A DNA stretch of 64,000 nt, taken from the IMG/VR virus record IMGVR_UViG_3300033067_001382, positions 1-64,000 of that record. The stretch is one strand, 5' to 3'. The position numbers and the translations under genes were made by a program. Below, piece after piece: positions 6,308-22,073 of the stretch. The notes beneath the pieces were generated by a model. The model was not told where the DNA came from and did not search any database. It saw only the letters and a list, made by a program, of their open reading frames with translations. How positions within the stretch are numbered: the first letter of the stretch is position 1; every line of letters begins with the position of its first letter. The DNA is from a virus. Taxonomy: Duplodnaviria; Caudoviricetes.

Positions 6308-7795
6308 TTAAGTGGCCCAAGGGGTGTCTGTCAAACTAATACCCGTCATCTCTTTGCCGATGCTTCGACGGTCATCAACCGAGATACCTTGACCATCGCT
6401 ACCCGCGAACGGATCTAGATTTTTGATATAGCGGCTGTCGAAGTTGACCTGCGCGTCGAAGGGGTTGAATTGCGGGTTGTCTCGATTCTTGAGGTTGCAG
6501 AACCGAGTGGTCTTATTGGCCCGATGGTCCGGATTGAGATAAGTGGTCGTGATGATGTCCGCCGAACGCTCTGCTTCGTTGGCGTACGCGAGCGCCTTCA
6601 TCTCATACCGACCTTCGTTCTTGTTGGCTTCGTCTTTGCCTTGACGATTAATCTGAAATAGCAGCAGGAGCGGAATAGATTCACCGTGGTTGAAGTGGAG
6701 CGCCAGCTTCTTGAAGTCACGGATGACGCTGTTCAGCTCGACTCCGAAATCTTTGTTGCGCTTCTTTTTTCGGGGCTCTACGAGACCGCCGTGGTCAACC
6801 ACCAAGAGACCAATCTCGTTGTTCTTGTGCTGGAGTTCTGCCTCCATTCGGATGTCGTCGGGCGAGACGTCATCGTCCGGAGCCCAGACATCGAAGTGTC
6901 CGTAGTCCGGATTGGTGCAGAAGTCCTCGATAACGATCTGGAAGAACTTCTCTTCTTCAGGAGTCAACTCGCCGTCACGCACCTTGCGGTAGTCGAGGGG
7001 TTTGTACCCCTGTAGTTCCCACTTCTTGTTGGTCGTGTGGATCGTGTAGATCAGCTTCCGGATGTGCTCGTACTTCATCTCCAGCGAGGCATAGAAGACG
7101 TTGGTCCGGTAGCGGGTTATCAGATTGTAGCACCACGTTGTGGCAAACGTGGTCTTGAGTTCTCCGGCATAGGCCGCGTGCATCCAGAGTTCGCCGCGCT
7201 TGATGCCGTGGCAAATCTTGTCGATCTCATTAAGGCCTGTGAACTTGCCCCAAGTGAGTCCCTTGTTGTTGCGGGCCTGCTCGTATTCCTTCCAGACCTG
7301 CTCACCGTCGGCGCGGAGGTTACCTCGAATCTGAGTGCTAGTCTCAGAAGTGATGAGCGTATTGGCACTTAAAGCGAAGTGCTTGAGACCATCTCGGACA
7401 CCACGCTTGACCTCACCCTCGATGGTGAGCCCCTTGTGAATGATGTCCTTGCTCTCCTGGAGGAGTGCGATGGCCTTGAGCTTGTTCTGGTCGTCGACGA
7501 GCTGGCTGACAAGGTGAGTGAAGTTGGTTCGGATATACGCCTGAGCGGACTCAATGTCCTTGAGACGCTCCATCGTCTCTTGGTCATTCTGCTTTTCGAA
7601 GTAGTCGACGATGGTCGCCTTAGCAGGTACCTCTAGGCGCGTGTGGAAGTACGTCTTGACAAAGTCGAAAACCTTCTTGTCATCCGGCCGAGTCCACTCC
7701 AATCGCGAGATGATAAGCTTCTGGAGATTCGCACACAGGTTGTCCTGGGTGATAGACCCATCAAAGTCAAGAATAGAGCGGAGAACTCTTTTCAT
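6308..7795 (-). CDS. dnaB: DnaB-like (SF4) replicative helicase
   Basis: TGLNEIDKICHGIKRGEL; atypical P-loop AAYAGELKTT; LLVVDHGGLVE; LLFQINR; ERSADII; KNRD. Confidence 0.88.
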   Translation of the reverse strand: MKRVLRSILDFDGSITQDNLCANLQKLIISRLEWTRPDDKKVFDFVKTYFHTRLEVPAKATIVDYFEKQNDQETMERLKDIESAQAYIRTNFTHLVSQLVDDQNKLKAIALLQESKDIIHKGLTIEGEVKRGVRDGLKHFALSANTLITSETSTQIRGNLRADGEQVWKEYEQARNNKGLTWGKFTGLNEIDKICHGIKRGELWMHAAYAGELKTTFATTWCYNLITRYRTNVFYASLEMKYEHIRKLIYTIHTTNKKWELQGYKPLDYRKVRDGELTPEEEKFFQIVIEDFCTNPDYGHFDVWAPDDDVSPDDIRMEAELQHKNNEIGLLVVDHGGLVEPRKKKRNKDFGVELNSVIRDFKKLALHFNHGESIPLLLLFQINRQGKDEANKNEGRYEMKALAYANEAERSADIITTTYLNPDHRANKTTRFCNLKNRDNPQFNPFDAQVNFDSRYIKNLDPFAGSDGQGISVDDRRSIGKEMTGISLTDTPWAT

Positions 7796-8697
7796 CAGAT
7801 GCCACCCTCACCACCAGAACCCCAACGCTTTTTCTTATTCGCCCTCCATTTGCCCTTCGCATCATCGAGTCCAGCCATGTCCATACTAGATCCGGTGACC
7901 GAAGGAGGTGGGTCACTCCGCGGCCGGGCGGGTGGCCGTGATTGAACCATCGGAGTAGTATCAATACCCATAGAGAGGTTACCTTCCTCATCTACTTGTT
8001 CTGACAACAACTCCGCCAGGGCGGCCTTTCGGCCAGCTTCGGTCTCCTTGATGCGGATGATTTCGTAATTGTTATGGGCCAGATACGAGTAAACATCGTC
8101 ACTGTAAGCGAAATGACCCGGAACAAAGGGGTTACCGGGTTCGACGATCAGCCAAGTCGGCACTCGGGCAACTTGCCGAAGCATCAGTGCTTCCTTGAGT
8201 ATCCCGGGCATTGCGATGTTCTTGTACCCAAGATGCCCCAAACGGATAACAAGAAGATGGTAGTTTTCTCCGATAAGATCACCCAGGGAATTGTACGTGG
8301 CGTCGTCATCTCTGTTCTTCTTCGGACGGGAGTTGTACTTCTCGTTGCCCAACCAAACATTCTTGAGCTTCTCGTCCGTGACTATCTTGGAGAAGAACTT
8401 GAGACCCTTCGCGATCAAAGCCCACTTGATGTGGGGAACTATGTCATACCAATTGCCCTGAATGATTAGGTTCTTAGAGGTCTTGTCAACCGCCGGGGGG
8501 TCATTGCGCTTTTCCCCGTCAATGTATAGAGGGCTACCGTCAAGCATCGGAGCGCTAGCGATCTCCGGGCCCAAGTGAGCCACCAAGGCTCTCATGTAGG
8601 AACACTTGCAAAAACGCTCGGTCAATTCATCAACTGAGATGGACCCCGTCCCTTTACAGAGTGGACAGTCTGGTTTCGGGGTGCGCTGTTCCATCAT
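7795..8697 (-). CDS. Degenerate DnaC/DnaI/IstB-like helicase-loader homolog with Zn finger
   Basis: CPLCKGTG...FCKC zinc knuckle; NLIIQG without a GKT; LLVIRLG in place of LLILDDLG; LKEALMLRQVARVPTWLI resembles the II..R....PT++T segment. Coupled to dnaB. Confidence 0.6.
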   Translation of the reverse strand: MMEQRTPKPDCPLCKGTGSISVDELTERFCKCSYMRALVAHLGPEIASAPMLDGSPLYIDGEKRNDPPAVDKTSKNLIIQGNWYDIVPHIKWALIAKGLKFFSKIVTDEKLKNVWLGNEKYNSRPKKNRDDDATYNSLGDLIGENYHLLVIRLGHLGYKNIAMPGILKEALMLRQVARVPTWLIVEPGNPFVPGHFAYSDDVYSYLAHNNYEIIRIKETEAGRKAALAELLSEQVDEEGNLSMGIDTTPMVQSRPPARPRSDPPPSVTGSSMDMAGLDDAKGKWRANKKKRWGSGGEGGI

Positions 8698-10439
8698 TCA
8701 CCATTACCCCGAGCACCATTCAGTACTTGCTGAAAAAGGTCTTTGACTGCGGAATCCTTCGTGAAGGTCAACGCACCCACCGCCGCTTCTCCGATGATTT
8801 TCTCGATGAAATCCTGCTTCTTCTGGAGCAGCTTGAGAACGTGGTCATCGATGGTCTTCTGCTCCTTCCCCTTTCGTGGTCGACGGGCGACCAGGTGGAT
8901 CGCGTAGACGTTCGGGTGCGGTGACCCGATACGAATCGGACGACCAAGGAGCTGCGCGTAGCCTCCGTAGCTGTATGGGGAATTCATAAAAACAAGCGCG
9001 ACAGCCGCTTGAAGGTTGATTGCTTCCGACCCTGCGTCGGTGATAAAGATAACTTGCGTGTCGCTGCTGAGATTCTGGAAGGCATCTTGAGCCAACTTGC
9101 GTTTGGCCTCGTTTTCCTTGCCGGTCACACGGACGCTCTTGATACCTGCCTTCTCCAAGAGCTTCTGCAACCGACCGACATGACTTTCGAACTTTGTATA
9201 GACAATGACTTTCTCGCCTTCGAACTCCTCAGTCAAGAGATCCAGGAGTGCCTGCTCCTTGGCGCTCATCTCCTTGAACTCAAGGTTGACTCCCTCGATG
9301 TGGTTCTCATGGATAACATCGCCTTCCTTGAACTTGAGAAGCGCCAATGAGTCTGCAATCTGCTGACAGTAGATTAGGCTCGTCAGGACCTTGGTCTCCT
9401 CGTAGTCCTTGACCTCGCCGTCACCCATCTCCAAGATACCCTCAAGAGCTTCGCCATACTTCCGGTCTTCGGCGGGTGATAGCTCACAGAGAATTTCTCG
9501 CGTGGTCAACTTGGGAAGCTCGGTGGCGACGGCGTGCTTTGGGCGGCCGTAGAAATACGGATCGATGGTCTGACGGAAAGCTTCTAGGTTCTTGTACCCA
9601 ACGATGATGGGTATTTGCCGACGACTCCCCTTGACCCGCTGCATTTGCGTGTAGCAGTAGTCCTTGATGAACTGGGCCTTGCTGGTGAAAACCGCCGGCT
9701 GGATGACCTTCATGATGTAGAAGCCCTCCTCCAGTTTGTTCTTGAGCAGGGTGGCGGTCAGTCCGTAGCAGCGATGAGAAATGTCCGAAAGAGCCTTACA
9801 CACTTGCCATGTCTTGGTCTGACCGTTCTTGAATGCCGTGCATTCATCGTAGACAGTCACTAGGGACTTGATTTGTCCAAAGATATCCTCTAGAAGGCCA
9901 GGCACTGGCTTGGCTCCCGGTATAGGTTTACCTCGACTGTCAAGTGGAACTGGCTTGAATCCATGTTGCCAGTCTCGAATCAAGGTATGGTAGTTCATCA
10001 CCATGACGATCTTGGGATCGTCCGGGCCCGTAGGGGCCGCGAGGAACTCTCTGTAGGTCTCTTCACGCTGTTCGACCTTCCCCTTGGGAATCAGGACTCG
10101 AATGCCGTTGGTGAAACGCTCGAACTCGGAGCCCCATTGGCGAATGGCCGATTTCGGGCACAAGATGAGGGTCTTGTTGTCTGGCTCGGTCGGGTAGAGG
10201 TAGCAAAGAGCCCCGATTGTCTGACAAGTTTTTCCCAAACCGGTACCATCACCAAGAATCATACGCTTCATCACCAGTAGGTGAAAAATGCCTTGGCACT
10301 GGTAATAGCGGAGCTTGAAAGGTATCTTTGACCCATCTAGTCCCGTAATCTCTTCGCGGAGCATCTTCGTCGGCTTTAGCGACAGAGTCGTACTGGTCCG
10401 AATCGACTTGAGCTGGTCGTAGGCTTTTTTGATATCCAC
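8694..10439 (-). CDS. SNF2-family (SF2) helicase/ATPase
   Basis: LGDGTGLGKT; VYDECTAFKN; GLTATLLKN; KVIVYTKF; DAGSEAINLQAA; QLLGRPIRIG. Confidence 0.93.
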   Translation of the reverse strand: MDIKKAYDQLKSIRTSTTLSLKPTKMLREEITGLDGSKIPFKLRYYQCQGIFHLLVMKRMILGDGTGLGKTCQTIGALCYLYPTEPDNKTLILCPKSAIRQWGSEFERFTNGIRVLIPKGKVEQREETYREFLAAPTGPDDPKIVMVMNYHTLIRDWQHGFKPVPLDSRGKPIPGAKPVPGLLEDIFGQIKSLVTVYDECTAFKNGQTKTWQVCKALSDISHRCYGLTATLLKNKLEEGFYIMKVIQPAVFTSKAQFIKDYCYTQMQRVKGSRRQIPIIVGYKNLEAFRQTIDPYFYGRPKHAVATELPKLTTREILCELSPAEDRKYGEALEGILEMGDGEVKDYEETKVLTSLIYCQQIADSLALLKFKEGDVIHENHIEGVNLEFKEMSAKEQALLDLLTEEFEGEKVIVYTKFESHVGRLQKLLEKAGIKSVRVTGKENEAKRKLAQDAFQNLSSDTQVIFITDAGSEAINLQAAVALVFMNSPYSYGGYAQLLGRPIRIGSPHPNVYAIHLVARRPRKGKEQKTIDDHVLKLLQKKQDFIEKIIGEAAVGALTFTKDSAVKDLFQQVLNGARGNGE

Positions 10440-10522: not shown

Positions 10523-11161
10523 ATGCCCGGTACCAGGGTTCCCAACAGGACAACTGCTACAACGCCAGAAGAGGCACTCTTCGCGCTCGACCAAATCTGG
10601 ACACAGGTTGCGCGCTACAATATCTCGTTGTCCCCACTTGCCGATATGTCGTCACTTGGTATTCTGATTTCCCAATGGGCCGTTGAGACCGACTGGGGAC
10701 TGAAGATGTTGAACCATAACTGGCTCAATGTGCCGAAGGACCCCGAAGACCTACACAACTTCACCACCCGAGTAAGCAAGCAAAACTACAACGGCGCCCT
10801 ACTGACAGTCCGGGATGAAATTCGCTCCTACGACACCTTAGCGGAGGGCGGCCTGGACATGATCCTCTGGCTGGCTAACAACAAGTATACAGCCGCTTGG
10901 GCTTTTGTGGTCGACGGGGACTGTAGAGGGTATCTGAACAAACTAGAAGAACTAGGTTTCTTTGGAATGCGTGCATCACACAACTACAAGTACTCAGTTT
11001 GCCATATCGCAGACCGAATCCGCTGCGAACACCCTACCCGACCAGACCTGCAACTACCAGGGGATTCCGTGGAGGAGCAGGAGCGATTCAACCGTCAAGA
11101 ACGCGACTACCTTCTCAACCTTGTAGCAATGTCTCTTTGGAGTCTTTCGGGAAGGACATGA
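10523..11161 (+). CDS. Divergent GH73/FlgJ-like (glucosaminidase/muramidase fold) peptidoglycan hydrolase
   Basis: ISQWAVETDWG...NHNWLNV resembles AQAALESGWG...NNLFGIK; RSYDTLAEG..D...L...KYTAA resembles Y.S..ES..DY..L...RY..A; AAGGA upstream. Confidence 0.55.
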   Translation: MPGTRVPNRTTATTPEEALFALDQIWTQVARYNISLSPLADMSSLGILISQWAVETDWGLKMLNHNWLNVPKDPEDLHNFTTRVSKQNYNGALLTVRDEIRSYDTLAEGGLDMILWLANNKYTAAWAFVVDGDCRGYLNKLEELGFFGMRASHNYKYSVCHIADRIRCEHPTRPDLQLPGDSVEEQERFNRQERDYLLNLVAMSLWSLSGRT

Positions 11162-11718
11162 TTTCAGTAGACTGCTATCTACTTGCACCTACATTGCTCT
11201 GGGAACGACTGCTTCGTCGTTACAGTGCAGGTTCGGAGAACAACTGCACTGGTCCCTTAGGGTACCATGATGCAGAGGCTTCGTTAAATTGCGAAGAGTT
11301 CGTCGACCAGCCGAATTGGGGACAGTTCTATTTTCGCGATGACTCACGATGGCCCAAAAAATGCAAAGCGTGCGGAAATCCATTCACTTCGGAGGATGAA
11401 TGGCAGGTATTCTTCCGGCGCTTCTACAAGCGTCAGGACACCCTGGAGCTAATAACGCTCGTCGAGGCGACCTATGGGGCAATGTGGCGCAGTTACGATG
11501 CCGAATTGGGCCACGACGTTACGATGATCAAGACACCCCTTGGGGACATCAACCTAGATCGGCGCATGCACTTACTACACGGGGAAGTCGTCGGGGAGGC
11601 ACCAAAATTGACTTGTAGTCGACGAATTGAGGGAATCCGTCCTCATGATGGCGCTTCATTCCGACTATGGGTACGAAACGGGGTTCTGCTCTACGGGCTG
11701 CCTCACTCAATTCCGTGA
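11158..11718 (+). CDS. Hypothetical protein (186 aa) with CxxC
   Basis: Start placed at ATG 11158 by the ATGA overlap with the upstream gene and a GAAGGA RBS; WPKKCKACGNPF motif. Confidence 0.65.
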   Translation: MISVDCYLLAPTLLWERLLRRYSAGSENNCTGPLGYHDAEASLNCEEFVDQPNWGQFYFRDDSRWPKKCKACGNPFTSEDEWQVFFRRFYKRQDTLELITLVEATYGAMWRSYDAELGHDVTMIKTPLGDINLDRRMHLLHGEVVGEAPKLTCSRRIEGIRPHDGASFRLWVRNGVLLYGLPHSIP

Positions 11719-15865: not shown

Positions 15866-16465
15866 TCAAAAAGAGAAATAGAGGCCCACAGAGGGGTTGT
15901 GCCGCCACGAACCCCAGGTGAGTCCGTAGCCTGCAAAGGCTCCGAAGTTTTTGGTGAGATCGGCGCCCACTGAGACACCGACAGAACGAACTCCGAAGGA
16001 GGCGTTCAAGTTGAACTGCTTAAAGTAGGCAAGGTCAGCCATGAAGGCAACATCCACGCCATCTGTCACTTTGGGTTGCTGGGCGGCATCCAACACGAGA
16101 AGACTCGCACCGAACTTGGGTCGGAAACGAAAACCCCACTCGCGATCAATGTGCTGTGCAGCCACCAACGAGACCTTGCCGGTTCCGTCAAGAGTGTAGT
16201 TGCACCACTCCATGTGGAATTTGTACGGAAGAGGTTCCGCACCTGAGGTATAAATGCGGCCATCCTTGTCCACCGCGATCGTCACCGAATCAAGTTGAAG
16301 CCTTGGAGATGTCTCTTGACGGCACTTCTGATCCCGAGCTAATTGGACAAAGGTCTTTAGGTCTGTCTCCGCAACACAAACTCCCTCGTTGCACTGTTGC
16401 GCGGCGACGCTCGGAGTAAAGAGGGTTGTGAACAAGAGGGCCAGGAGGCAGAGAAACTTCTTCAT
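15866..16465 (-). CDS. Secreted protein with a C-terminal amphipathic beta-strand array (putative outer-membrane protein)
   Basis: Signal peptide MKKFLCLLALLFTTLFTPSVAA; alternating-hydrophobic strands (FNLNASFGV, SVGVSVGADL, FGAFAGYGLTW); ends GLYFSF. Confidence 0.7.
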   Translation of the reverse strand: MKKFLCLLALLFTTLFTPSVAAQQCNEGVCVAETDLKTFVQLARDQKCRQETSPRLQLDSVTIAVDKDGRIYTSGAEPLPYKFHMEWCNYTLDGTGKVSLVAAQHIDREWGFRFRPKFGASLLVLDAAQQPKVTDGVDVAFMADLAYFKQFNLNASFGVRSVGVSVGADLTKNFGAFAGYGLTWGSWRHNPSVGLYFSF

Positions 16466-17001
16466 AGGTTTCCATATTTAGCGAGCAAATCATCGATCTT
16501 CTTCGCGTCGATACCAGAGCTATCCTTGACTGTGATGGCATGGATGCCAGGAGACACTATGACGACTTTGTCGACGTCCTTGCTAGTAACACCGTCCGGC
16601 AGAACAATTTGGATTGGCTTGTCCGCGTTCGGCGGAGTGAATGTCACTACGCTGGGGTCAGAGAAAAGCCCAGGCTGGTTGATCGGTACCACCTGAACTT
16701 GGGTGTTACCTTGACTGTCCGGTTGATTGATCGGAATGACTTGGCCATTCTTGTCGATACGATTCGAATCAATTGAATTGATGATATCGATGTTCTTCTT
16801 GAGATCGTCGGTCGTGCGTCCAAAAAGTTTGCCAAGGAGTCCTCCGATTTGCAACTCCTTGAACCCCATCGAGACAAGCACGACAGCAACAACGATAATG
16901 ACAATAGCCACCACCGGAGCGAGCAAGTTCTTGCCCGCCCATCGAAGGACTGTCATGATACGGTCCCCGACTTCTTGCCAGAAAGTCTTGACGTCACTCA
17001 C
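16462..17001 (-). CDS. Single-pass membrane protein
   Basis: One transmembrane helix (LLAPVVAIVIIVVAVVLVSMGF); GTGA/ATGA overlaps with both neighbours. Confidence 0.75.
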   Translation of the reverse strand: MSDVKTFWQEVGDRIMTVLRWAGKNLLAPVVAIVIIVVAVVLVSMGFKELQIGGLLGKLFGRTTDDLKKNIDIINSIDSNRIDKNGQVIPINQPDSQGNTQVQVVPINQPGLFSDPSVVTFTPPNADKPIQIVLPDGVTSKDVDKVVIVSPGIHAITVKDSSGIDAKKIDDLLAKYGNL

Positions 17002-17429
17002 CACGGGTGCTCGTTGGGCGGAGCGTCGTCCGCTTTCGCTCCGCCCTTGGGGAGAGTCGGCGGAGTAAATGGAAGATCCGGTTTCTCACCAGCTTCGGTA
17101 GCCTTCATCCAGCTTCTAAGACGATTGTAGGCCCAACCACTTGCGAGGCCGCAGATCATCCCGTACATCAAACGAGCCGACAGGGCCGCGTGAGCAGCTC
17201 CTTCGACGATAACCGGCCAAGGGAACTTGACTGCCAAGATCGCCAGAATCGCGCCCGTACCAATGGGGCCGAGCGGCAAAAACAGCTCCGTCCACCACTT
17301 AGATTTCCTGGCGTTGGGAAGGGCAAATTCCACCACCGTACGAATGACGTAAGTGATGACATAGATGCCCAAACAGAGCACGGCAGTCTGCCAGCTCATG
17401 AAGACTTGAAAAGCTTGATCAAAGTCCAT
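16998..17429 (-). CDS. Holin-like protein (about three transmembrane helices, charged C-tail)
   Basis: 143 aa from ATG 17429; three hydrophobic segments and a hydrophilic Pro/charged C-terminus; located at the end of the tail operon. Confidence 0.55.
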   Translation of the reverse strand: MDFDQAFQVFMSWQTAVLCLGIYVITYVIRTVVEFALPNARKSKWWTELFLPLGPIGTGAILAILAVKFPWPVIVEGAAHAALSARLMYGMICGLASGWAYNRLRSWMKATEAGEKPDLPFTPPTLPKGGAKADDAPPNEHPW

Positions 17430-17462
17430 AAGAAACCCTCTCAGCAAGAGAGGGTTTCTTAT
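17428..17462 (-). promoter_or_regulatory. Perfect 15-bp hairpin covering the RBS and start of the holin-like gene
   Basis: ATAAGAAACCCTCTC-(5 nt)-GAGAGGGTTTCTTAT; the 3' arm on the minus strand contains GAGAGGG and the AT of the ATG. Confidence 0.8.
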
Positions 17463-17469
17463 AGGTTTT

Positions 17470-17694
17470 TTACTCGTCCGAAAGCGGAACTGTCTCGTCG
17501 AGATCGACCGTCTGAGCTTCTCCGCCTCGCTCCCAAACTGAGAGTTCGTTGAGTTGCGCCTGGAGAACCGCGGTTTGCTGGGTAGTCAAGAAGGGGTTAC
17601 TAAGAAGTTGGCGGATTCGTTGTCGAACCCGCGCAGCCCCTTCCTGACGGACATCTTGAGGCAAGTCCGAAGCCTTACGAGAACGAATCCCCAT
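17470..17694 (-). CDS. Small hypothetical protein (74 aa)
   Basis: TGATG overlap with the upstream structural gene. Confidence 0.6.
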   Translation of the reverse strand: MGIRSRKASDLPQDVRQEGAARVRQRIRQLLSNPFLTTQQTAVLQAQLNELSVWERGGEAQTVDLDETVPLSDE

Positions 17695-20600
17695 CACTCA
17701 GCTCGCCGAGAAAGAACGATGTTATCCGGATTAACCTCGTAGTTGAGGTTATCGTTGACCAGCGGATGTCCATCAAGGCGGTAAAGATCCGAAGCCGCGT
17801 AACCTTCCTGAGTACCGTTCGAGCTGATCAATGTGAAGTTGTCAACCTGATTCTGTCCCGGACCAACTTGGTGAACGTTAGTGACCACCAGCATCATTAA
17901 CTCGTCTCCGGCCGAAACCTCAGAAGCTCCAACATTAGCAACCGTGTTCCGGACAAGGTAAACCTTGCCTGTCAGCACGTTGGTGTGACTGTTAGGGCCA
18001 TAGACCTCACCGTAGGCCGAGTGGACTTCACCGCCCGGGTAGGTCCCTGAGCCGCAAAAGGCCGAGCCACCTCGATTGGTGCGATACTGGCTATTGACCG
18101 CGTAGTTGGCAATAGCACCGTCCATATGAACGATGATGTCACCGGGGGCTCCGCTGGCCTGGCTAGCACCCGACAAAGCGACTTCCTTGTGCTCAGCGCG
18201 CGACGTCGTCGCCAAACTGGGAACGAAAGAACCGAGGCCCTGCTCTTCGAGGAAGAGGAGCTGTGAACGGTTTCCGAGGCCGTTCGAAACGGGTTGGAAA
18301 CGACCCCCTCGGAAGTCCTTGTCTCGGAAAAAGGCCCCCAGTGGAAGACGTTCCGTGCAACCAAGGTACTGGGTGTTGACTTCGCCCTCTGTGGACGAAA
18401 GCGCTCCGACCGCTACGACCGGACGACTTGTGGTTGAACCGCCACTGATTGCCGTTGGCGGAAAGACCGTCGGTTGAGTCGTGTAGTCAAGTGCCTCGTA
18501 TCCGACATTTCGGAAATCAAGTGCTGTGTTGCTGACCAGATCTCCGGAGAGTCGACCGGTACCCAAGGTAGTCGAAAACGACAAGGATGCCAAGACTTCA
18601 ACTGCACGTTGGTTGACCCGAGTCAGATTCAGCTCGTCCAGAGGGTTCGAGACGACCGAGTACGCTTCCGCGCTGGTGATTGCGCCGCTCCGGTGACCGA
18701 GGTCGACCGTCTGCGCGCCGAAGGCACTTCCCATGTAGGGTGTGCGGCTGTAGTTGATGACCGCCTGATCCGAACCCTGGAGAGGTGCAGGGATGATGCA
18801 GGTCGGACCATCTACCTTGGCATCGACTCCTGCCGCTCCAAAGTTGTCCGCACGCGTCGCACTAGTGGCTCCTGTACCGGACAGACGCGAGCGGTTCAGC
18901 ACGAGGCGGAATGGCTTGGACTGATCGAAGCTACCGCGGTCAAAGCCGAAGACGCTGGCTTCGATGACGTAGTGAGCCGAGGTGAACGAAGAAATCGCGT
19001 TGGGGCTCTTAGACAGATCCAAAGCCGCCGCGTTGATAACGAAGGTCGAATCACCATCGACATCTTGTTCGATCCAGAAAGTCGCACCATCGAACTGCGT
19101 CCGGAGCAGGTTGGTTGCTCCTGCACCCGAGGCAATACGATCTGACTGACCAAAGGCCGATCCGTTAGATACGTAGTCAGCCGCTTCGTAGACCGCAAAG
19201 AGGCGCGCGATTCCGTAGAAAGGAGGTAGCTCCAAGCCCGTGCGGCCACGACCATCATCAAAGAAGCGTGTACCGGCGTAACGGATACCGTTACCCGTCA
19301 CGAACGTGTACTGAGTATTGAACACCGTTGCGGTCGACACCGTGTCAAGTTGACGCGTGGAGAATGCCGCGTAAGAGAATGAGTTGCCCGTGCTGTAACT
19401 GACGTACGTCGGGTTGTGAGACTGGGTTGTTGGCGACGCTCCCGACTTTGACATCAACAGGAAGTTGACGCCTCGACTAAAGTTGACTGCATCCACCGGA
19501 AGAATAGGAACACGAACTTCACCCCAACCTGGAATCAGGTGACGTGGCAGAGTCACGTAGAGGTTCTTGGTGGCCGTCGCTGGATCGGTGGTGCCCGAAA
19601 AGAGTCCAAGGGGGTCGGTGGTTGTCCACTTGGACGTGACTCCGTCCGGCTTGAGCAGAGGCATCAAGCCCTGTGAGTGACGAACTTCATAGGTCGGGGT
19701 ACCCGTGGGAACAGCGCGATCCAAAACTAGTTGCGTGATATCTCCAAGCGGAGCTACCTCAACAACCGTGAAGGTGCCCGTGATAGGTGCGTTGAAGGTG
19801 ACTGCATCACCCTCAACCACTCCTACCAGAGTGAAATTCTGCAACAGATCTGTAATGGTCGTAGAGCCCGTCGTGGTGGCTGTACCTGAAGCAAACGCTG
19901 CCCCAGAGCGAGGGTTAGCAACCGTGCCATCCTGAACGATCAGCTTCTGTGGGAAACCAACACGGCGGAAGGGAGTCAACGCGATAGTTTTGCTGCCAAG
20001 ATCCGCAAAACTTTCCGCCGTCACTGGGAGGTGCGTTTTGTAAGTAGCACTCCGGTACTTGCTCCAAAGCGGAGCCCACGCAGTGCGAAGAGGCGTGTTC
20101 TGGGTGGGAGTGAATGGGGTCGCCGACGGCTGGAGCAGTAGTTCGTTGCTGGTGTTGGTCAGCAACGCAATGCTGTGAATTGAGTCTGGTCGACGCGAGA
20201 GTCCACGTCCACCGCCGTACTGGATATTCAGTGTTATATAGACGTTACGCTGGTCAACCTGAGGAAATCCGGATAACAGCGTAATGGTTAAATCATCCGT
20301 CGGCAAGGGGTTCGTGGGGGTCACCGTAAACAGTGATGAATCCACCGGAACCTCTTCACCATCGAGGCGAAGCGTCACCGCATTGACGATACCGTTGTTA
20401 ATAAAGCGAACCTGGTCACCATCGCCTGCACCGACCGAGTTCTTGAACTGGGCCACGGGGATGATGATGTTGTCACCAGCATTGAACTGATTGGCACTCC
20501 CTTGCGCGGTCGTATTGGCCGTGATGGAAAGAGAGAATGAAGTGTCCGGAGTTCCGTTCAGCGGTTGAGAACCAACCAAAACAGCCGAAGTGAACGGCCG

Positions 20601-22073
20601 AACGATGACTTCAACTTTCTGCTGGACCGCAGCATCGCTCCAGACCATGCGGATGTTATCCGGGCCGTCCAGCTTCGTGATCTCCGGGCTGGTCACCGAG
20701 CCAGCGATCTTGTCTTGATATGCCAGGAAAGGACCCTTGGTGCTGGTGCTTGCGCCCCGCTTCCAGGTACTCCGGAGCTTACCGGAGAGGAGTTTATCGA
20801 CGTTGTTCCTAAGCAGCGTCTCGTAGTCGAACCCATTGGGGTTGACAACGTGCCGGGCATCAAGGATGTCATTCGCAGCGATCTGATCCGCAAACAGGCC
20901 ATCGGGTCGACCTGCAAGAATAACAACTGACTCACCAGCCTTGTGGGTTTGCTGGGTCGTGCCATGAGCACCACGAACCAGACCAGAGATATTGCCACCA
21001 GTGATGGCCGTGTAGGTTACAATCTCATCGCCAATTTGAACCGTACCTCCCGTCGTGGGCAACGGGATATCAACCGTGCTAGAAAGTGCCGCTGTCGTCG
21101 CCGATGCAGTGAGATCAGCAAGTAGTGTTGGGACCGTCAGGAACGCTTTGGCGCTCGCACGACTCGTCACGGTTAGCTCACGACGATTGAATGACCCATT
21201 CAGGTTCGGGGAAGGTTCGCCATTCCACGCTGTCGAATTGCGACGAAAAACGTGGCAGATCGGGATGGCATACGAGTAACCATCCACAGTGTTAAGGGTG
21301 TTCGCCGTTCCGTCACCTGCGCGCCATAATCCCGGATCACCGAGGTTCGTACGCATATTGACAAAGCTAAAGGTCGTTGCTGTCTCGCTATTGAGGTAGT
21401 CGTAGGCTCCTTTGGCCTTGACCGACGTCGAGCTAAATCCATCCGCGGCTGTCAGACCAACGACTCGGATTCGGTACTGGACCTGAATCCGCTGAGTGGT
21501 CTCGAATCCCATGTCAGGATCTTGAGTGTCATCATTAAGGTACGAATACCCACCCTCGATGTTGCCATAGCGGTAAACCGCCGACGTGCTCGGCTTGTTG
21601 GTCTGCGCGTTCGGGGCGACTCGGGCGATCCAGACTTCCAGGAAGACGAAGTCGACCCGGCTGTCACCAGACGTCGAAGGAGGCGGATCCAGAAAAATCT
21701 TGTTCCACGTGTCGCTGTTGTTGGCCCCTCCTGGAGGAGTTCCAGTGCGAGTTCCGGTAACCGGGACCATCCAACCATTGACCACAGCCCACTGAATCGA
21801 ACGCAGCTCATTGGCGCGCTGACGGCCGAACTGGAAGAAGTTCGACCACATGGGGTTGGTGAGATAGTCCTCACCAGGGTTGGTCTCATTACCAAGCCAG
21901 CCAGAGGGCGTATTCCGAAGGAGAAGCTGCTGACGCCAGTCATTCTCCAGAGCCTGGATAAGGTTGAACTCGCTATCGAGCGGTGGCTTGCCTTCTTGCC
22001 AGATGACCTGAAGGAAGCTCGCCTGCTTCGGGTCCAGAACCCTCGAAACTCCATTGCCGAGATTGTCCGCCAT
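17694..22073 (-). CDS. Large virion tail/baseplate-associated protein (paralog of 27957-30491)
   Basis: 1459 aa, T/S/G-rich beta composition; N-terminal QEGKPPLDSEFNL, FVFLEVW, QVQYRIRVV, DPGLW, YAIPICHVFRRN shared with the paralog. Confidence 0.75.
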   Translation of the reverse strand: MADNLGNGVSRVLDPKQASFLQVIWQEGKPPLDSEFNLIQALENDWRQQLLLRNTPSGWLGNETNPGEDYLTNPMWSNFFQFGRQRANELRSIQWAVVNGWMVPVTGTRTGTPPGGANNSDTWNKIFLDPPPSTSGDSRVDFVFLEVWIARVAPNAQTNKPSTSAVYRYGNIEGGYSYLNDDTQDPDMGFETTQRIQVQYRIRVVGLTAADGFSSTSVKAKGAYDYLNSETATTFSFVNMRTNLGDPGLWRAGDGTANTLNTVDGYSYAIPICHVFRRNSTAWNGEPSPNLNGSFNRRELTVTSRASAKAFLTVPTLLADLTASATTAALSSTVDIPLPTTGGTVQIGDEIVTYTAITGGNISGLVRGAHGTTQQTHKAGESVVILAGRPDGLFADQIAANDILDARHVVNPNGFDYETLLRNNVDKLLSGKLRSTWKRGASTSTKGPFLAYQDKIAGSVTSPEITKLDGPDNIRMVWSDAAVQQKVEVIVRPFTSAVLVGSQPLNGTPDTSFSLSITANTTAQGSANQFNAGDNIIIPVAQFKNSVGAGDGDQVRFINNGIVNAVTLRLDGEEVPVDSSLFTVTPTNPLPTDDLTITLLSGFPQVDQRNVYITLNIQYGGGRGLSRRPDSIHSIALLTNTSNELLLQPSATPFTPTQNTPLRTAWAPLWSKYRSATYKTHLPVTAESFADLGSKTIALTPFRRVGFPQKLIVQDGTVANPRSGAAFASGTATTTGSTTITDLLQNFTLVGVVEGDAVTFNAPITGTFTVVEVAPLGDITQLVLDRAVPTGTPTYEVRHSQGLMPLLKPDGVTSKWTTTDPLGLFSGTTDPATATKNLYVTLPRHLIPGWGEVRVPILPVDAVNFSRGVNFLLMSKSGASPTTQSHNPTYVSYSTGNSFSYAAFSTRQLDTVSTATVFNTQYTFVTGNGIRYAGTRFFDDGRGRTGLELPPFYGIARLFAVYEAADYVSNGSAFGQSDRIASGAGATNLLRTQFDGATFWIEQDVDGDSTFVINAAALDLSKSPNAISSFTSAHYVIEASVFGFDRGSFDQSKPFRLVLNRSRLSGTGATSATRADNFGAAGVDAKVDGPTCIIPAPLQGSDQAVINYSRTPYMGSAFGAQTVDLGHRSGAITSAEAYSVVSNPLDELNLTRVNQRAVEVLASLSFSTTLGTGRLSGDLVSNTALDFRNVGYEALDYTTQPTVFPPTAISGGSTTSRPVVAVGALSSTEGEVNTQYLGCTERLPLGAFFRDKDFRGGRFQPVSNGLGNRSQLLFLEEQGLGSFVPSLATTSRAEHKEVALSGASQASGAPGDIIVHMDGAIANYAVNSQYRTNRGGSAFCGSGTYPGGEVHSAYGEVYGPNSHTNVLTGKVYLVRNTVANVGASEVSAGDELMMLVVTNVHQVGPGQNQVDNFTLISSNGTQEGYAASDLYRLDGHPLVNDNLNYEVNPDNIVLSRRAE

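Follow-up and report, generated by a model that had tools for sequence, protein, structure and literature searches.

A 64,000-nucleotide stretch of DNA from an uncultured tailed virus (IMG/VR record IMGVR_UViG_3300033067_001382, positions 1 to 64,000; referred to below as the window) carries three co-oriented, overlapping open reading frames (ORFs), here called gA, gB and gC, which lie on the minus strand after a tail-fibre-like gene and a small gene, g0 (Table 1). We find that two of them, the predicted bitopic membrane protein gB and the predicted secreted protein gC, represent two genuine and conserved families of putative envelope proteins that occur as a pair in megaphages and had not been described before, and for which a role in lysis is credible. 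The two genes are found together throughout a large clade, and in several lineages they have been naturally fused into one. We propose, with a probability of roughly 0.4, that gB and gC form an inner-to-outer-membrane unit which disrupts the outer membrane at lysis, and which would be an analogue of the spanins rather than one of them.

Conservation and natural fusions of the gB-gC pair

Both proteins have many relatives: gC has 44 close homologues and its family comprises 120 clusters at 50% identity, while more than 214 homologues of gB were found, with about 50-60% identity, and therefore these ORFs did not arise by chance. In 39 related loci the genes follow the order g0, gA, gB, a variable insert of 0-1.8 kb, and gC. 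All but one of these 39 loci yielded both gB and gC; in 30 of these 38, phmmer also detected gA, which in most cases immediately precedes gB. In most relatives gB and gC are adjacent or overlap, mostly by an ATGA, and in the others they are separated by 0.3-1.8 kb of inserted genes. Even remote gC homologues (~25% identity) still have the fibre gene on one side and the replication genes for SNF2 and DnaB on the other, and in two remote loci, L065 and L066, a gB homologue precedes gC with an ATGA overlap. Neither gA nor g0 could be detected beside the pair in the remote lineages, and therefore the conserved core is gB-gC rather than all three genes. The initial annotation of the window, made from the sequence alone, had treated gA, gB and gC as a single cassette; the comparison of synteny replaces this trio with a pair conserved clade-wide, which gA adjoins only in the closer relatives. 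The median identity to relatives amounts to 52% for gB and 45% for gC, compared with 48% for the fibre protein, 56% for SNF2, 58% for DnaB and 39% for both gA and g0. As the invariant unit, the pair thus appears to behave like core genes, which fits an essential function.

A profile search also returned nine clusters of proteins of 335-410 aa, in which a gB-like N-terminal half runs into a gC-like C-terminal half, and the same junction is seen in a 302-aa fragment (P0216). The fusion ORFs were confirmed on the DNA in two cases, L063, which is an independent contig, and L064. In the latter, a fusion gene encoding 354 aa immediately follows the fibre gene; it has its own Shine-Dalgarno sequence and is preceded by a terminator-like hairpin, and neither gA nor g0 was found at that locus. 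Eight of the fusion clusters retain an internal segment resembling a signal peptide, devoid of a positively charged n-region, while one fusion (P0182), which comes from a single 1.3-kb contig, appears to join the two domains without any such segment. Two trivial origins of the fusions were considered and rejected: recoding of a stop codon, as the junctions share no recoded residue, and a one-nucleotide assembly error or frame slip at the ATGA, as the junctions lack the M-K/R n-region. The fusions, together with the constant adjacency of the separate genes, argue for a functional link between gB and gC, and constitute strong evidence that the two proteins work together. A complex prediction for gC (residues 23-199) with gB (residues 48-180), made with alignments for both partners, gave ipSAE values of 0.07 and 0.00, which count neither way.

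The predicted secreted protein gC and its barrel-like domain

The description of gC in the initial annotation, namely a protein secreted by signal peptidase I (SPase I), with four cysteines in its N-terminal half and about six amphipathic strands ending in an aromatic motif, agrees with our analysis at each point, as does the statement that the three proteins have neither a lipobox nor a coiled coil. A recognizable signal segment precedes the predicted cleavage site (Table 1), and 83 of 99 family members pass a simple signal-peptide heuristic; a lipobox-like string occurs in just one of the 99, and the residue Cys6 of gC lies outside any lipobox and is not conserved. The cysteines of the N-terminal domain are C25, C30, C48 and C88, of which C48 and C88 are invariant in the family and C30 is at least 90% conserved, and this domain is probably periplasmic and disulfide-bonded.

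In the AlphaFold2 model of gC, the predicted local distance difference test (pLDDT) score is 88 overall and 92-97 over the C-terminal 90 residues, with six long strands in residues 110-199, which the monomer closes into a small barrel. In the family profile these strands alternate, with aromatic and aliphatic residues on the outward face and Gly, Ser, Asn, Asp and charged residues on the inward one. The β domain contains an invariant GFRFRPK motif, and the invariant charged residues of the inward face are R113, R115, K117, D138 and D169. The chain terminates in GLYFSF, a G-x-x-F-x-F motif similar to the β-signal of outer-membrane proteins (OMPs), with F197 invariant and F199 at least 90% conserved; of 99 family members, 63 end in F or W and another 30 in F-N. 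Residues 81-102 include two more amphipathic strands with a highly charged polar face and C88 at the turn; they might extend the barrel to eight strands, or they may belong to the soluble N-terminal domain. Variation and insertions are concentrated in residues 124-136, the loop that follows the first barrel strand.

Searches with the structure of the β domain return only small barrels and outer-membrane proteins. With VIA-align 2, an in-house structural aligner, the top match of gC is the designed barrel 9xzt (Z 9.2, root-mean-square deviation of 2.4 over 79 residues), followed by a designed transmembrane barrel (Z 6.0) and the natural outer-membrane proteins OmpW, OprF-N, CarO, OmpA and NspA (Z 4-5). 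Foldseek found nothing in the PDB at E <= 0.001, and in BFVD one uncharacterised phage protein of 324 aa (E 2e-5), while a shape search of the ESM Atlas yielded a TM-score of ~0.45 to unnamed viral clusters and otherwise only weak matches to PagL and other OMPs. At the level of sequence, a profile search of the PDB came back empty and gC has no match in PHROG; among 66 family members compared with the curated OMP families OMP_b-brl, Ail_Lom, OmpA_membrane and PagL, none reaches the cut-off, and there are single weak matches each to OMP_b-brl, DUF2490 and Phenol_MetA_deg.

Altogether, gC exhibits the features by which an outer-membrane barrel is recognized, namely a predicted Sec signal, amphipathic strands in even number and, at the C-terminus, an aromatic motif like a β-signal. 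It resembles the small outer-membrane β-barrels (OmpX/Ail/Lom, the N-terminal domain of OmpA, OmpW and PagL) in its signal peptide, alternating strands, outward aromatic residues, short turns, terminal aromatic motif and charged interior, but it differs from them in having six clear strands in ~90 residues (eight if those in 81-102 are counted), in its additional Cys-bearing N-terminal domain, and in not reaching any Pfam OMP family.

The predicted membrane protein gB

The second protein was annotated at the outset as having a single transmembrane segment and a β/Pro-rich domain, and this architecture was recovered here. gB has an N-terminal tail of ~26 aa and a predicted transmembrane helix at ~27-48, within its only hydrophobic segment (residues 22-53), followed by a Pro/β-rich domain of ~115 aa; the AlphaFold2 model of gB has a pLDDT of 73. 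Immediately after the helix lies the Gly-rich juxtamembrane motif KELQIGGLLGKLFG, which represents the most conserved region of the family; it recurs in the remote and fused forms as xN(V/I)GG(L/I)xGxLFG. The charges that flank the helix are of the N-in type in the remote and fused forms, and an N-in/C-out orientation of gB appears more likely than the reverse. The protein has no relative in Pfam, PHROG, the sequences or folds of the PDB, or BFVD; VIA-align 2 matched only its N-terminal helix, and a feature search of the ESM Atlas gave no usable match. Likewise, blastn and tblastn searches of GenBank phages with the three genes together, with gB and with gC found no match.

The holin-like protein gA

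The first gene of the three encodes a probable, distant holin. It had been annotated as a holin-like protein with about three transmembrane segments; the holin-like character is supported by recurrent weak matches to holin families, and of the segments two are clear and one is weak. The two strong hydrophobic segments span residues 14-33 and 49-70, and the weaker, amphipathic one residues ~87-101; the N-terminal tail is acidic, the loop 30-48 positively charged, and the C-terminal tail charged and Pro-rich. The gA of the window matches the holin family phrog_1299 weakly (E 0.011). Among 21 aligned members of the gA family, nine match phrog_1299 (best E 3.3e-5) and four match another holin family, phrog_1129, and beyond these two no family recurs across the 21. 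In Pfam, gA has no family, with no match to a holin or to MotA/ExbB. Thus gA is similar to class I holins (lambda S type) in its small size, acidic N-terminal tail, positive first loop, two to three hydrophobic segments and charged C-terminal tail, in its weak matches to two PHROG holin families, and in the hairpin over its start codon, but it differs from them in that these matches are weak and the third segment is poorly hydrophobic, that no dual-start motif has been demonstrated, and that no endolysin gene adjoins it.

The hairpin is a strong stem-loop between g0 and gA, whose 3' arm contains both a Shine-Dalgarno-like GAGAGGG and the ATG of gA. When 18 distinct spacers from related loci were folded, comparable strong hairpins before gA were seen in six (L003, L005, L006, L011, L018 and L022). 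The stem-loop may serve to terminate transcription or to attenuate translation, and its position over the start of gA fits, but does not prove, a tight control of a toxic membrane protein. The loop of this hairpin also contains an in-frame TTG (17445-17447, minus strand), which precedes the ATG of gA by six codons. A start at this codon would extend gA to 149 aa by adding MLRGFL, which includes one Arg, and it is not conserved among the relatives aligned; a dual start of the holin/antiholin kind is conceivable for gA.

A megaphage clade and its candidate lysis genes

The window represents the first 64 kb of an 81,595-bp contig (G000), the completeness of which was estimated by CheckV at ~17%. 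Relatives that carry the module are 416-513 kb long, and three of them have direct terminal repeats; terminally redundant genomes of 435-513 kb are among these relatives. We searched the 400-500 kb contigs for 16S rRNA, which would betray a prophage or host DNA, and found none; such an origin was rejected on account of this result and of the terminal repeats. Because of the terminal repeats and the lack of rRNA genes in the large relatives, the clade is one of uncultured megaphages with genomes of ~0.4-0.5 Mb. No relatives of gC were found in contigs of prokaryote genomes, so that there is no clue to a prophage or a host from that side. Among the sequencing runs listed for this sequence none is an RNA run, and the other runs contain only small shares of it. 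Since the contig covers only ~17% of a megaphage genome, little can be concluded about the genome as a whole from genes missing in the window, and this applies also to the label 'spanin-independent' that the initial annotation gave to the cassette.

A candidate endolysin is encoded ~4.7 kb from the module. Against PF01832 it scores 25.3 bits (E 2.7e-5), under the cut-off of 30.2 bits, in an own-genome search it attains E 7.1e-7, and it also has a weak match to an endolysin PHROG. This gene belongs to the only plus-strand stretch of the window (10523-11718), which contains a second ORF, of 239 aa, with no function assigned. In five near-complete relatives we found Glucosaminidase domains in two and Amidase_2 in one, none of which adjoins the module, and no Phage_lysozyme. 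The inserts between gB and gC in the relatives were also checked for an endolysin; their products have a DnaJ domain, are GIY-YIG-like or are unknowns, and no clear lysin is among them.

No match to Rz (PF03245) was found in the same five near-complete relatives. A strict scan for lipoboxes in the complete 435-kb relative G003 returned spurious ORFs only, while a relaxed scan returned isolated ORFs at ~410.0 and 417.6 kb and an internal one at ~419.4 kb; inspection of the neighbours of those at 417.6 and 419.4 kb revealed no transmembrane partner. The ORF at ~417.6 kb (L061:17590-17760, minus strand) encodes a lipoprotein-like product of 56 aa, MKAALLFLTLVLVSC..., with six cysteines and a Pro-rich tail, which is similar to an o-spanin in size and composition only and has no membrane-protein gene alongside.

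Functional interpretation of the pair

According to the interpretation we favour, gB would be anchored in the inner membrane of a diderm host by its N-terminal helix, while gC would leave the cytoplasm through Sec, lose its signal peptide to signal peptidase I, and be embedded in the outer membrane via its C-terminal β domain, with the Cys-bearing N-terminal domain facing gB in the periplasm. In this phage the pair would be coupled in translation to gA, the distant relative of holins, where the late tail operon ends. Once the wall had been removed by the holin and by an endolysin encoded at another site, the tethered pair would disrupt or fuse the outer membrane. In other words, gB-gC would be an analogue of a two-component spanin in which a β-barrel replaces the lipid anchor, and the fusions would be analogues of unimolecular spanins. 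We arrive at this proposal because of the predicted anchors in the inner and the outer membrane, the coupled or fused genes, the holin-like neighbour, the position at the end of a late operon and the core-gene-like behaviour of the pair. It is further supported by the fact that no canonical spanin pair was found as an alternative in the near-complete and complete relatives searched, and that soluble endolysin candidates are encoded elsewhere, as in phages with scattered lysis genes.

The pair shares with the two-component spanins (lambda Rz/Rz1, T4 PseT.3/PseT.2) the arrangement as adjacent, overlapping genes, the combination of a predicted inner-membrane protein with an N-terminal transmembrane segment and a partner putatively targeted to the outer membrane, the location where the late genes end, with a holin-like gene as neighbour, and a summed periplasmic length of ~200 aa. 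In contrast to them, it includes no lipobox o-spanin and no member of PF03245: gC would be secreted by SPase I and held by a barrel-like anchor instead of being a lipoprotein, gB is β/Pro-rich and devoid of Cys, and there is no similarity of sequence or profile. Owing to this absence of a lipobox and of homology, gB-gC does not belong to the spanin families. The natural fusions are comparable with the unimolecular spanin gp11 of phage T1, as a single chain that would have an anchor in either membrane around a β-rich middle; gp11 itself is predicted to be β-rich (PMC6139136). Their polarity is reversed, however: gp11 is characterized by an N-terminal lipobox and a C-terminal transmembrane segment, while in the fusions the transmembrane segment is N-terminal and the putative outer-membrane anchor is a C-terminal barrel and not a lipid, and most of them keep an internal signal-like segment. 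The initial annotation had assumed that i-spanins are coiled-coil proteins; this does not hold as a rule, as more than 120 i-spanins without a coiled-coil prediction have been described (Kongari et al. 2018, PMC6139136). Lom-type genes differ from the pair in being accessory, while gB-gC is core-gene-like. Other envelope proteins offer a parallel for the proposed architecture. TonB and VirB10, bacterial proteins anchored in the inner membrane, combine an N-terminal transmembrane segment and a run rich in Pro with a C-terminal domain in contact with, or inserted into, the outer membrane, as we propose for gB-gC, with the difference that we detected no homology to them and no ExbB/ExbD-like partners.

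Several observations weigh against a spanin-like role. Neither gB nor gC matches any spanin in Pfam or PHROG, there is no endolysin gene within the gA-gB-gC cassette, gA is not adjacent to the pair in the remote lineages L064 and L066, and gB, which is without Cys, is thus also without the intermolecular disulfides common in spanins. Given the three lipobox-bearing ORFs of G003, the clade may possess a divergent canonical spanin. The positive charges (K/R) that flank the transmembrane helix of gB are balanced in 53 close relatives (2.7 on the N-terminal and 2.9 on the C-terminal side), which favours neither orientation there. Furthermore, the internal signal-like segment in most of the fusions is hard to square with a periplasmic gB domain: with this domain in the periplasm, the hydrophobic stretch inside the chain would have to pass through the membrane, and a functional signal peptide at this place would put the gB domain in the cytoplasm.

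The alternative that survives best, though we consider it unlikely, is superinfection exclusion or receptor masking, in which a late envelope pair, by analogy with T5 Llp and with Cor, would stop further phages from adsorbing or introducing their DNA, or protect progeny from inactivation on cell debris. The pair always follows directly on a tail-fibre-like gene, and the llp and cor genes adjoin receptor-binding genes; in L064 the pair is a unit of its own behind a terminator-like hairpin, the loop 124-136 of gC varies as would be expected of a surface loop, and some lineages do without gA at this position. However, genes of this kind are usually accessory and patchy, while gB-gC is core-gene-like across deep lineages, the known masking proteins are lipoproteins, while gC has neither a lipobox nor a PHROG match in spite of its fibre-adjacent position, and the inner-membrane partner and the holin-like neighbour would be left unexplained.

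With even lower probability, the pair may exert some other activity at the outer membrane, with gC as a pore or porin-like channel, or as an incomplete barrel that engages or stalls the β-barrel assembly machinery (BAM), and gB as its tether, chaperone or regulator. In agreement with this, gC combines a β-signal-like C-terminus with only six clear strands, which to our knowledge is fewer than in any known outer-membrane barrel, its inward face carries invariant charged residues, and it belongs to no known family. On the other hand, such an activity would not explain the fusion of gB and gC into one chain, it is pure inference, and the AlphaFold2 monomer of gC closes its six strands unaided. 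Finally, it is highly improbable that the two are virion or morphogenesis proteins, i.e. tail-fibre-associated or assembly factors resembling envelope proteins, as the Sec signal peptide, the conserved cysteines, the OMP-like barrel with its aromatic terminus and the transmembrane anchor point to the host envelope and a terminator-like hairpin parts the genes from the fibre genes both here and in L064, even though the position at the end of the tail operon and the core-like conservation would suit such a role.

Gene layout, neighbours and insertions

The coordinates of the features discussed are collected in Table 1. The three ORFs are joined by overlaps much as annotated at first: gC starts and gB stops within an ATGA, and the start of gB overlaps the stop of gA inside a GTGGTGA, where the overlap becomes the annotated four-nucleotide GTGA only if the second GTG is used as the start. 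Their assignment to the end of a tail operon likewise agrees with the PHROG match of the 1459-aa fibre-like protein and with a Baseplate_J gene, which is also located upstream of the module. On the other side, a gene for a UvrD-type helicase starts 12 nucleotides beyond gC.

Table 1. Positions of the genes, protein segments and structural elements described in the text
Feature	Position	Strand	Description
Candidate endolysin ORF	10523-11161	+	212 aa; glucosaminidase-like; no transmembrane segment or signal peptide
gC	15866-16465	-	199 aa; predicted secreted protein with OMP-like β domain
gC C-terminal OMP-like β domain	15869-16138	-	residues 110-199; six amphipathic strands
gC N-terminal domain	16139-16399	-	residues 23-109; CxxxxC hairpin, helix 33-51, small β strands
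gC signal peptide	16400-16465	-	residues 1-22; MKK, h-region, VAA|QQ; SPase I type, no lipobox
gB	16462-17004	-	180 aa; GTG start; predicted bitopic membrane protein
gB juxtamembrane motif KELQIGGLLGKLFG	16819-16860	-	residues 49-62; Gly-rich; Q52, G54 and G55 invariant
gA	16998-17429	-	143 aa from ATG; holin-like membrane protein
Stem-loop between g0 and gA	17428-17462	-	15 bp; minimum free energy -29.5 kcal/mol
g0	17470-17697	-	75 aa; soluble helical protein; overlaps tail-fibre stop (ATGA)
Tail-fibre-like gene	17694-22073	-	1459 aa; phrog_11439 tail fiber, E 1.6e-8; upstream of the module, also in relatives

The product of g0 has no hydrophobic segment and could not be assigned to any family; it contains a conserved motif, L-(S/A)-N-P-x-L-T...W-E-x-G, and is present in 30 of the 39 related loci, upstream of gA in most relatives. 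It is possibly a chaperone of the fibre or a regulator of the module.

The boundaries of the module appear to be hot spots of insertion. Proteins of 360-440 aa with an N-terminal DnaJ domain (J-domain) are inserted in L007:3527-4609, L027:3808-4965, L037:3773-4951, L038:3889-4980 and L005:4692-6008, between gB and gC in most of these loci and between gA and gB in L005. GIY-YIG-like ORFs of the homing endonuclease type, with KKRSPE-type repeats, lie between gB and gC in L010:4318-4983 and L015:3497-4255. In L065 (5037-6453), Response_reg and HisKA/HATPase_c genes, i.e. a phage-borne two-component system, are found between the fibre gene and gB. Elsewhere in these genomes, the DnaB and SNF2 helicases of relatives contain LAGLIDADG inteins (L004:10357-12537, L064:9594-12227, L065:7924-10722), while those of the window (DnaB, 6308-7795; SNF2, 8694-10439) are intein-free as judged from their length.

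Conclusions

The anatomy of the three proteins given in the initial annotation was right, while the mechanism it suggested, an oligomerizing partial barrel that links to an inner-membrane partner to disrupt the outer membrane or to exclude superinfecting phages, is one of several that fit. A more far-reaching claim, which we regard as doubtful, is that gB-gC is the first phage trans-envelope system with a BAM-type β-barrel as its outer-membrane anchor, and would represent a third architectural class of spanin-like disruptors, which would include single polypeptides inserted in both membranes, by a helix at the N-terminus in the inner and a barrel at the C-terminus in the outer one, and in which the barrel is perhaps of an unprecedented six-stranded or oligomeric form.

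The lysis of giant phages is largely unknown, and a sizeable share of the phages of diderm bacteria have no recognizable spanin. If the proposed role is true, the pair of an inner-membrane anchor and an outer-membrane barrel would provide a concrete and clonable candidate for the lysis of giant phages, and a new protein architecture in which to study how the two membranes of bacteria are bridged or breached. If gB and gC act in exclusion instead, they would nonetheless be two new families of core envelope proteins, occurring as a pair in a large clade of uncultured phages.

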